Positions 12,311 to 13,448 of a DNA stretch of 19,979 nt are shown here, in pieces. Position 1 is the first letter of the stretch. The number at the start of each line of letters is the position of its first letter. Below the pieces are notes generated by a model, which was given only the letters and a program-made list of their open reading frames with translations, did not search any database and was not told the DNA's origin. The DNA comes from Flavobacteriales bacterium (GTDB lineage Bacteria; Bacteroidota; Bacteroidia; Palsa-965), in contig JBEIPA010000049.1 in assembly GCA_040377305.1 (NCBI GenBank), positions 1 through 19,979 of the forward strand, written 5' to 3'. Made by a program: the position numbers and the translations under genes.

Positions 12311-12460
12311 TAACGGAGTTTCAACGGGGTTAGCAAGTAAATATAGTGAAACTGTCGTGCGGAAGAAAGGCAGATGTCAGATAGAACATAGACCGGGCAG
12401 ACAACAATTATTGGGCGGATTGGACGGGAATTATGGGAAAGTCACAGTCCGGTATCTCTC

Positions 12461-12503
12461 AAATAAAAGTGCCGATGTACCGAACTCAATCGGCATATCG
12501 GCA
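12461..12503 (-). terminator. Intrinsic terminator downstream of the TerB-like gene
   Basis: On the minus strand TGCCGATATGCCGA-ttgagt-TCGGTACATCGGCA is followed by CTTTTATTT. Confidence 0.7.
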
Positions 12504-12525
12504 TTATGAAAATCAGCAGAGTGAA

Positions 12526-12888
12526 TTACTCAAACTCCGGTGCCCACGCAGAATACAACGCGTTGAGAAATGTATTTTCTTCCTTCGTAATTACGTCATC
12601 CGCTTTCACCAGTTTCACAGCGAAATTCAGAAAATCATCGCGCTCATCGGGCGTAGAATCTTCGTAGAAATCGTTCATGGCTTTTGTGAAGTGTTCCATG
12701 TAATTTTCACGCGGGAGAGTGGAAAGGAATTGAACTTCTTCGTCGAGGTTTACATGAAACGGAAAATTTTCTTCGAGGTAACGAACGATAATTTTTCCTT
12801 CCGATTCCGGAAATTCGCCATCTACTTCGCTCAGCATGAGTAGCAGATGATATCCAGCCAGTGGCTTGTTGAGTTTACGCGTTGTCAT
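12526..12888 (-). CDS. TerB-like (tellurite-resistance TerB fold) protein
   Basis: Likely start is MTTRKLNK at 12888, with -7 box TAATTTTG at 12897-12904. LMLSEVDGEF..SE and LVKADDVITKEE..FL are the twin (A/V)DG/D...E motifs of TerB; 120 aa. Confidence 0.8.
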   Translation of the reverse strand: MTTRKLNKPLAGYHLLLMLSEVDGEFPESEGKIIVRYLEENFPFHVNLDEEVQFLSTLPRENYMEHFTKAMNDFYEDSTPDERDDFLNFAVKLVKADDVITKEENTFLNALYSAWAPEFE

Positions 12889-12960
12889 CACAGACGCAAA
12901 ATTAGCAGAGGAAAGTGTTATACGTGTAAGAGTCGTGTCGGATGGGTGAAATATTGTGGC

Positions 12961-12995
12961 AAAAAATGAAAAGAGCAGCAATTCTGCTGCTCTTT
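12961..12995 (-). terminator. Intrinsic terminator of the tRNA unit
   Basis: 11-bp stem AAAGAGCAGCA/TGCTGCTCTTT (12970-12995) followed by a T-rich tract on the minus strand. Confidence 0.8.
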
Positions 12996-13039
12996 GTACC
13001 CGGGACGGGACTTGCCTTTAGCGAGTCCCTCTTGTGTCT
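12996..13039 (-). pseudogene. Partial, degenerate copy of tRNA-Leu (3' 19 bp exact, plus D-arm/anticodon-stem remnant)
   Basis: GTACCCGGGACGGGACTTG at 12996-13014 is identical to 13175-13193. AGTCCCTC(TT)GTGTCT at 13024-13039 matches tRNA bases 13226-13239 with a 2-bp insertion. Confidence 0.8.
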
Positions 13040-13046
13040 TCGTCAA

Positions 13047-13169
13047 AATGGAAAGGTCAAATCGCAGGGCGATTTACCTTTTGTATTTGCACCCGATTAC
13101 TTGCGCAAGCGCAGCATTCCGGTGCAAATACAAAAGGGGATTCAGCTAAAGCTTCATCCCCTTTCCATT
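13047..13169. mobile_element. Nested-palindrome non-coding element (REPIN/MITE-like) between tRNA-Leu and its partial copy
   Basis: 10-bp terminal IR (13047-13056/13160-13169), 17-bp central IR (13077-13093/13121-13137) and two flanking hairpins (13052-13081, 13133-13164). Mobility is inferred, not shown. Confidence 0.6.
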
Positions 13170-13175
13170 CATAAG

Positions 13176-13258
13176 TACCCGGGACGGGACTTGAACCCGT
13201 ACAGCGTTACCGCCAAGGGATTTTAAGTCCCTCGTGTCTACCATTCCACCACCCAGGC
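13176..13258 (-). tRNA. tRNA-Leu (anticodon TAA)
   Basis: GCCTGGG/CCCGGGT acceptor stem, D-arm GGTGGAATGGTAGACAC, anticodon arm AGGGA-CTTAAAA-TCCCT, long variable arm and T-loop GGTTCAAGTCC; CCA not encoded. Confidence 0.97.
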
Positions 13259-13402: not shown

Positions 13403-13448
13403 TTACGCTCTACCTCTCGATAACTATCGGGATGAGCTACTTCCGCTA
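13403..13448 (-). pseudogene. 5' fragment copy of tRNA-Gly with an 18-bp palindrome in the D-loop
   Basis: 13403-13414 equals 13351-13362 and 13433-13448 equals 13366-13381. The intervening AAC is replaced by TCTCGATAACTATCGGGA (13415-13432). Confidence 0.85.

Follow-up and report, generated by a model that had tools for sequence, protein, structure and literature searches.

TLRs have been known in E. coli since 1978, and those linked to tRNA genes are described as having no known function (PMC8144298). By definition, the final 18-19 bp of a tRNA-linked repeat (TLR) exactly repeat the 3′ end of the gene in front of it, and TLRs behind 5S rRNA are transcribed and processed, and bind Hfq and CsrA (PMC8144298). 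In a second described system, single-domain GIY-YIG Ssn enzymes cleave one strand of single-stranded DNA (ssDNA) beside hairpins (PMC11893778). We find that a non-coding unit behind a tRNA-Leu gene of a Flavobacteriales bacterium is TLR-like in operation and fits a loose TLR definition, yet belongs to a separate structural family. The unit is real, ordinary in its class and new in form, and is most likely a non-autonomous ssDNA element at tRNA 3′ ends with a candidate enzyme.

The unit lies within a window of 19,979 nucleotides, the whole stretch of DNA that was analysed. It is read on the minus strand, directly 3′ of tRNA-Leu(TAA), and leaves the tRNA gene intact. A preliminary description of this DNA had claimed a 19-bp duplication of the tRNA 3′ end, and the direct repeat 12996-13014 = 13175-13193 is indeed identical at 19/19 positions, with a spacing of 179. 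The copy at 13175-13193, second by coordinate and first along the tRNA strand, is the 3′ end of tRNA-Leu(TAA) at 13175-13258 (minus strand). Checked base by base, the stems claimed in that description all lie where it placed them. The terminal stem (13047-13056/13160-13169) has 10 bp, the central stem has 17 bp from 13077/13137 without a mismatch, the hairpin at 13059-13075 has 7 bp, and that at 13133-13164 has 9 bp and an inner stem. There is also a fifth hairpin (13007-13029), whose 5′ strand, 13021-13029, pairs with the duplicated T-stem. The native terminator said to follow the second repeat copy along the tRNA strand is present at 12995-12970. In order along the tRNA strand, the features are:

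13175..13258, minus strand: tRNA-Leu(TAA), intact host gene and target
13175..13193, minus strand: first copy of the 19-bp repeat, formed by the tRNA from its T-loop to its 3′ end
12996..13174, minus strand: the 179-bp unit, the exact stretch missing from the empty allele (joint 12995 to 13175; 19 letters fit both sides)
13160..13169, minus strand: P1 outer stem, 5′ strand, including the putative mobile core AAAGG
13133..13164, minus strand: P2 arm, a hairpin that resembles a terminator, with a T tract behind it on the tRNA strand; a consensus scanner did not pick it up here
13077..13137, minus strand: P3 central arm, a 17-bp perfect stem
13102..13113, minus strand: P3 apex, with a loop that reads gCTTGc on the tRNA strand; partial copies in homologous arrays resume at this point
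13059..13075, minus strand: P4 arm, 7 bp with a 3-nt loop
13047..13056, minus strand: P1 outer stem, 3′ strand
13030..13046, minus strand: linker conserved in tRNA-Leu members, containing most of the claimed second tRNA remnant
13007..13029, minus strand: P5 hairpin, which replaces the T arm and pairs with the 3′ strand of the duplicated T-stem; its cap covaries
12996..13014, minus strand: duplicated tRNA 3′ end; in homologues, the part shared with the host tRNA begins at about U60
12970..12995, minus strand: native terminator, directly 3′ of the tRNA in the empty allele

The fold is much more stable than in shuffled sequence, with z = -7.59 for RNA (minus strand) and -7.44 for DNA (plus strand), and none of 200 shuffles was equally stable. 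The sequence AAAGG/CCTTT occurs at 13052, 13077, 13133 and 13160, and had been proposed to allow alternative folds. Two predicted junction conformers, related by this 5-bp core, lie 1.8 kcal/mol apart with DNA and RNA parameters alike. The claimed second tRNA remnant at 13024-13039 stands in part: its likeness to a D/anticodon stem is real, but 13021-13029 is better read as the 5′ strand of P5, and the tRNA likeness fades in homologue alignments. Reading the window's open reading frames by eye, we found no integrase or nuclease among them, as had been noted. The neighbouring gene (12526-12981, minus strand) is TerB-like at 24.3 bits, just under the cut-off of 24.4. A public contig that may come from the source sample is identical over 12400-13204, spanning the unit and both repeat copies with 0 differences, although it ends only 11 bases beyond the tRNA-side repeat. 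Five other sequence runs gave no coverage of the unit.

An empty allele exists in a near-identical strain. In a contig from another study, precisely the 179 bases of the unit are missing, and 19 letters at the joint can be assigned to either side; the contig differs from the window at 6 of 313 bases on one side and 0 of 68 on the other. This allele is a single contig of depth 3.6 and could be a deletion between the repeats. Together with paralogues at nine tRNAs, covarying homologues behind tRNA-Leu elsewhere, and tandem and decayed copies, it supports the earlier proposal of a non-autonomous miniature element that targets tRNAs.

Related units occur at many tRNA genes of this genome. BLAST of the unit in its own genome returned no second copy. 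A survey of 53 tRNA/tmRNA calls, from which three tDNAs without a recognisable T-loop were left out, found nine units of 161-182 nt, behind Leu-TAA, Ser-GGA, Ser-GCT, Ser-TGA, Val, Cys, Arg-CCG, His and Gln. All nine repeats begin at A58, in standard tRNA numbering; seven are 16-19 nt long and two are 8-9 nt. A covariance model built from 15 tRNA-Leu units only gave 18 matches in this genome, including six of the eight paralogues at tRNA ends (Ser-GGA and Arg-CCG were missed). Matches start at the first base past the tRNA for Val, Cys, Gln, His and Ser-TGA, and four bases past it for Ser-GCT. The same model found further units in the family.

Among relatives, the presence of the unit at tRNA-Leu(TAA) is patchy. 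Of 25 readable loci, 22 have no unit, one has an intact homologue (G043, from another family), one has a decayed unit (G010), and one has a different, 133-bp tandem repeat (G048). Another decayed copy is found in G014. A pattern requiring only a repeated tRNA-Leu end returned 51 genome loci and 62 metagenome loci, 40 of the latter being parsed. Nine further genome loci and eight further metagenome loci were accepted on their fold, and the records of the accepted genome loci name Bacteroidota. The remaining loci were tandem tRNAs, other repeat types and simple repeats. Because the tRNA-Leu set was chosen on folding, its own topology count is circular.

The fold is conserved outside this set. 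In the modelled pairs of P2, the P3 tip and P5, 17 of 23 change on both sides, a count that kinship inflates but that none of 500 shuffles reaches and that exceeds all slid controls. Covariation was counted only for these elements because register shifts hid P1 and the outer P3 in alignments, and RNAalifold on MAFFT alignments did not recover either one. P1 is absent from the model, yet it is folded by 20 of 21 non-Leu units. Furthermore, the four-way junction forms in 13 of the 21, compared with 58 of 1140 shuffles. An end motif of 17 nt from P5 occurs in 25 of 301 genomes of the class (reversed control, 0), and a tRNA lies upstream at 20 of the 25 loci examined. In 14 units found by this motif alone, the junction is predicted in six (DNA parameters) or nine (RNA parameters), compared with 16/280 and 26/280 shuffles, respectively. 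Unit length and fold are conserved across tRNA types, and units at the same tRNA type are more alike than units at other tRNAs. The covariation could stem from arm-to-arm palindrome correction rather than from selection. An earlier class-wide pattern, matching 4 of 401 genomes, was discarded; its hits in G129 and G263 were chance matches away from tRNAs. No Rfam family reaches its gathering score over the scanned sequence except two tRNAs. In the literature searched, we found no description of a family with this four-way junction; most subscription papers and supplements lay outside that search, so a catalogue entry could exist.

Units share several features with E. coli TLRs, including the 178-bp units of tyrT-tyrV, the lysT-lysQ units and rrA/rrB/rrF (PMC8144298). 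Both are non-coding, lie right behind a tRNA and measure ~160-180 bp. Both end in a copy of the tRNA 3′ end that starts near A58 and contain a strand complementary to that copy, together with short GNA-capped hairpins, and both form tandem copies. As a TLR should, the window unit lies directly downstream of a tRNA gene and has terminal identity to its 3′ end, at 19/19 positions here, 16-17 in six paralogues and 8-9 in two. However, the E. coli hairpin array is nested inside the tRNA-complement helix, whereas Bacteroidota units have a four-way junction upstream and a tRNA-complement helix with one cap only. The Bacteroidota repeat also lacks CCA and is often cut to 4-9 nt. We found no homology to the E. 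coli repeats: the model, run on the tyr and lys loci only, gave no full-length match above 5.7 bits, and its best match at E. coli TLR loci (11.7 bits) was on a terminator.

Other described systems are more distant. Ssn nucleases are small single-domain GIY-YIG proteins that cleave one strand of ssDNA and are paired with NTS/SRM hairpin repeats, which flank the nuclease gene; the candidate nuclease and the units may be similar in these respects. The words “tRNA” and “Bacteroid” do not occur in the main text of that report (PMC11893778). The SRM motif has no match in 70 unit entries on either strand, and units differ from SRM repeats in being 175 nt long, tRNA-bound and few per genome. Islands inserted at tRNA 3′ ends by integrases, such as that of G015, likewise have a repeat from about U60, leave the tRNA intact and supply a new terminator, and the unit shares with them an att-like tRNA-end repeat with a precise empty site. 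Unlike these islands, it contains no integrase gene, no cargo and no arm-type sites, and it has a fixed length and fold. MITEs and REPIN/BIME elements are also non-coding, palindromic and non-autonomous, and the units have inverted repeats around their junction. In contrast to these elements, the unit is a single copy by BLAST, with paralogues only behind tRNAs, and its 10-bp inverted repeat lies inside the element, whose ends the tRNA repeat defines. A MITE would have terminal inverted repeats at its ends, a short target duplication and many dispersed near-identical copies. The unit is neither an SRM repeat, an island, a classic MITE nor an Rfam RNA.

Loop usage points to ssDNA rather than RNA. 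cGNAg-type mini-hairpins are far more stable as DNA than as RNA (PMC13037366). Across 39 rows, one of which later proved to be a neighbouring tRNA, cGNAg triloops number 33 on the sense (tRNA) strand and four on the antisense strand, against 1.6 in shuffles. With the search motif left out, 14 independently found units show the same bias (8 versus 0). Ordinary terminator-like hairpins of this genome contain 0 cGNAg triloops among 134, and 11 GNRA loops. GNRA loops are also sense-biased in the units (9 versus 2; 6 versus 1 in the independent set), which would fit RNA too. The strands show no bias in G-T pairs (140/123 and 55/58) and no asymmetry of G-T versus A-C, and a perfect cGNAg triloop is missing from the unit of the window itself. 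The sense strand is the more stable fold in 29 of 38 units with RNA parameters. In most homologues, the tRNA is immediately followed by a terminator-like hairpin with a T tract as the first arm, and transcription of the tRNA may therefore mostly end at P2. Together with the DNA-like loop usage, this weakens the earlier idea of a structured RNA co-transcribed with the tRNA.

Sequence breaks cluster at two hairpin sites, and this clustering, like the triloop bias, points to ssDNA rather than RNA. Of 32 units, 10 match the tRNA end over at least 15 nt and the other 22 over 4-9 nt, with no match of 10-14 nt. A single mismatch or indel in an otherwise full copy accounts for three of these 22, and the search accepted nothing shorter than 4 nt. 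Break positions therefore concentrate at the base of P5. In eight arrays, each from a different genome, the sequence continues past such a break into a partial copy after no more than 10 nt. Measured from the P3 tip, the re-entry points lie at -12.5, -7.5, -3, -1.5, 0, +3.5, +6.5 and +22. Six of these eight direct re-entries are thus within 7.5 nt of the tip, for which chance is ~1 in 10,000 by a hand calculation with a uniform 125-nt null and a window chosen afterwards; four further partial matches with longer gaps were excluded from the count. Tandem copies also occur with differing but fully paired P3 stems, one variant being common to two species (G016 and G026). When circularised in silico, four of six units fold into a single rod that has P5 at one end and the P3 tip at the other, and the window unit does so loosely. 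We found no circle and no unit copy in the phages, plasmids and viral contigs searched, and the end motif matched 120 viral loci, none behind a tRNA.

Small tRNA-linked GIY-YIG nucleases are the best candidate for an enzyme acting on the units, and the link is a lead. In one unit array, that of G318, a GIY-YIG gene (L284:1771-2034) forms a cassette with the same leader, terminator and repeat boundary as the units, and the candidate protein matches PF01541 and UPF0213 structures. A broken GIY-YIG gene follows the Ser-TGA unit of this genome, and another GIY-YIG gene precedes a truncated unit in G014. Small GIY-YIG genes follow tRNAs at 18 of 28 loci (18 of 29 in a second count), where they are themselves tRNA cassettes; one locus of the 28 comes from an unpublished genome (G012). 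Full-length units lie beside only one of 30 nuclease loci, so the co-location may reflect shared use of tRNA ends. GIY-YIG genes are not enriched in genomes with the motif (13 of 19 motif-positive versus 17 of 31 motif-negative), and a nuclease query found nothing in the unit-holding genomes G006, G014, G015, G016, G024 and G028.

Three side observations bear on GIY-YIG genes. At L002 (G000 C49:161812-162350), tRNA-Arg(CCT) is accompanied by an intact 86-aa GIY-YIG gene, a tRNA remnant and a short E. coli-like TLR whose hairpins lie inside the tRNA-complement helix. At least seven small GIY-YIG genes stand in tandem with ~365-bp spacing in G318 (C34:6988-9766). Within the window, 13403-13448 (minus strand) is a spare 5′ piece of tRNA-Gly upstream of the tRNA-Gly gene, in which an 18-nt palindrome replaces D-loop bases. 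In the genome, the family of this palindrome gives 46 strand-counted matches; it is found again in GIY-YIG tRNA cassettes. The tRNA-Gly piece is also found in G004, G008, G020 and G023 (matching from query position 14). The piece is likely the scar of a GIY-YIG tRNA cassette.

Our leading reading, held tentatively, is that the unit is a gene-less tRNA 3′-end insert of a Bacteroidota TLR family that moves as a folded DNA strand, cut by a tRNA-associated GIY-YIG nuclease supplied in trans. The parts of this reading differ in strength: we have high confidence that the family is TLR-like, it is probably a selfish element at the DNA level, and if it is, the identity of its enzyme as GIY-YIG is a somewhat doubtful but reasonable guess. 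By prediction, the tRNA-like strand forms a four-way junction whose 5-bp core is mobile, with P5 capturing the duplicated T-stem. Hairpin-directed nicks at the P5 base and the P3 tip would start excision and insertion, and host repair could complete the event by annealing the 15-19 nt tRNA end. The truncated ends, and the partial copies that run from tip to end in arrays, might be products of failed events. Guide targeting, in which the element strand would find its target by complementarity to its own tRNA end, was rejected on three tests. The own end was best in one of 28 cases; then in three of 28, against 3.5 expected; and a post hoc in-register comparison gave 6 wins, 8 ties and 21 losses, leaving only a local 3-6 bp P5 helix as general.

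It is unlikely that the unit is instead a non-autonomous mini-island moved by tyrosine integrases, with the repeat as att core and the junction replacing arm sites or mimicking a Holliday intermediate. The attR of the G015 integrase island shares the tRNA end from about U60, the same boundary as in tRNA-Leu units; truncated right repeats resemble damaged att sites; and folded ssDNA substrates have precedents in integron integrases and XerCD/CTX. Yet the short direct repeats at the G015 island ends, by eye likely arm sites, are absent from the units, one structural family is found at many tRNA types with unrelated 3′ ends, and re-entry at the P3 tip is unexpected from att x att recombination. 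A model search beside the genome's seven integrase loci gave no match, and by eye we saw no shared motif there. In G015, moreover, the integrase island separates the tRNA from an intact homologue of the unit (82% identical, with a different yet paired central stem), and the unit is therefore no part of that island; this, and the length and fold conserved across tRNA types, speak against the minimal island remnant once suggested. We consider it very improbable that an HUH enzyme of RAYT or IS200 type drives a rolling-circle-like route from a nick at the P3 tip. In favour of this route, 10 matches to Y1 transposases occur in this genome, and partial copies from tip to end recall REP/BIME amplification, although the Y1 flanks contain other repeats, with no shared motif by eye and no model match, and such enzymes, to our knowledge, normally make no target duplications. 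REP/BIME are also mentioned in PMC11893778.

Two further explanations both seem improbable to us. The unit could be a functional RNA. It might serve as a 3′ trailer of the tRNA or as a small RNA comparable to E. coli RrA/B/F, or else as an attenuator based on competition between P1 and the P2 terminator. The processed, Hfq- and CsrA-bound 5S-linked TLRs (PMC8144298) would be its precedent, and the more stable sense strands (29/38), sense-biased GNRA loops and strong covariation would fit. A functional RNA is harder to reconcile with units that occur patchily, are missing from a near-identical strain and are also found as decayed or partial tandem copies, and with DNA-type triloops that are frequent in units and absent from true terminators; its terminator-like arm comes first, and no Rfam family reaches threshold. 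Alternatively, no dedicated enzyme may be involved: each tRNA would carry an old, vertically inherited insert that is reshaped through cruciform cleavage, slippage and correction of its palindromes and disappears when the stretch between the repeats is deleted. The greater likeness of units at the same tRNA and the lack of a co-occurring enzyme agree with this, and hairpin tips and short direct repeats are ordinary break sites. Left unexplained are the first insertion at many tRNA types with one boundary, an end motif kept in 25/301 genomes, and divergent intact variants that stand side by side and are common to species.

Several handles are available for the Bacteroidota family but not for the E. 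coli set. An empty allele is defined to the base, dozens of members at many tRNA types covary, break hot spots are mapped at two sites, loop usage has a DNA-type strand bias, and there is a candidate enzyme. These handles make the question of mobile DNA or RNA directly testable. If true, movement as folded ssDNA with a borrowed enzyme would let DNA enter tRNA 3′ ends, the chief landing sites for genomic islands, without a recombinase, and would explain the long-puzzling tRNA-linked repeats of bacteria. It would also warn that short tRNA-end repeats are not necessarily island att sites. A bolder, speculative extension, which we think unlikely as a whole, is that TLRs across bacteria are minimal selfish ssDNA replicons or transposons. 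In Bacteroidota, the element would be a rod-shaped circle of 175 nt that contains a mobile, Holliday-like junction. GIY-YIG nucleases resident at tRNAs would nick it at both hairpin ends, and a single enzyme would insert it at many different tRNA genes with no recombinase involved.

Several other arrangements were observed at tRNA genes. Other tandem repeats linked to tRNA-Leu include the 133-bp units, units of 80-90 bp in Flavobacterium records and units of 165-190 bp in Shewanella records; loci with other repeat types are L022 (G048), L062, L071, L075, L094, L098, L051, L060, L064 and L097. In G000, a 70-nt, 93% copy of the tRNA-Leu(TAA) 3′ part without a unit behind it (C45:248424-248493) is a possible island attR, and C7:88552-97060 contains 15 tRNA genes in three blocks, separated by long imperfect palindromes of short repeats. 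At L041, L076, L083, L018 and L021, genes presumably encoding four-helix-bundle proteins lie beside tRNA-Leu or tRNA-Gly, some with short-repeat palindromes upstream. At L039 (G038:C103), ~240 nt resembling, by eye, a group I intron interrupt the anticodon loop of tRNA-Leu, with a duplicate of the 5′ half upstream.
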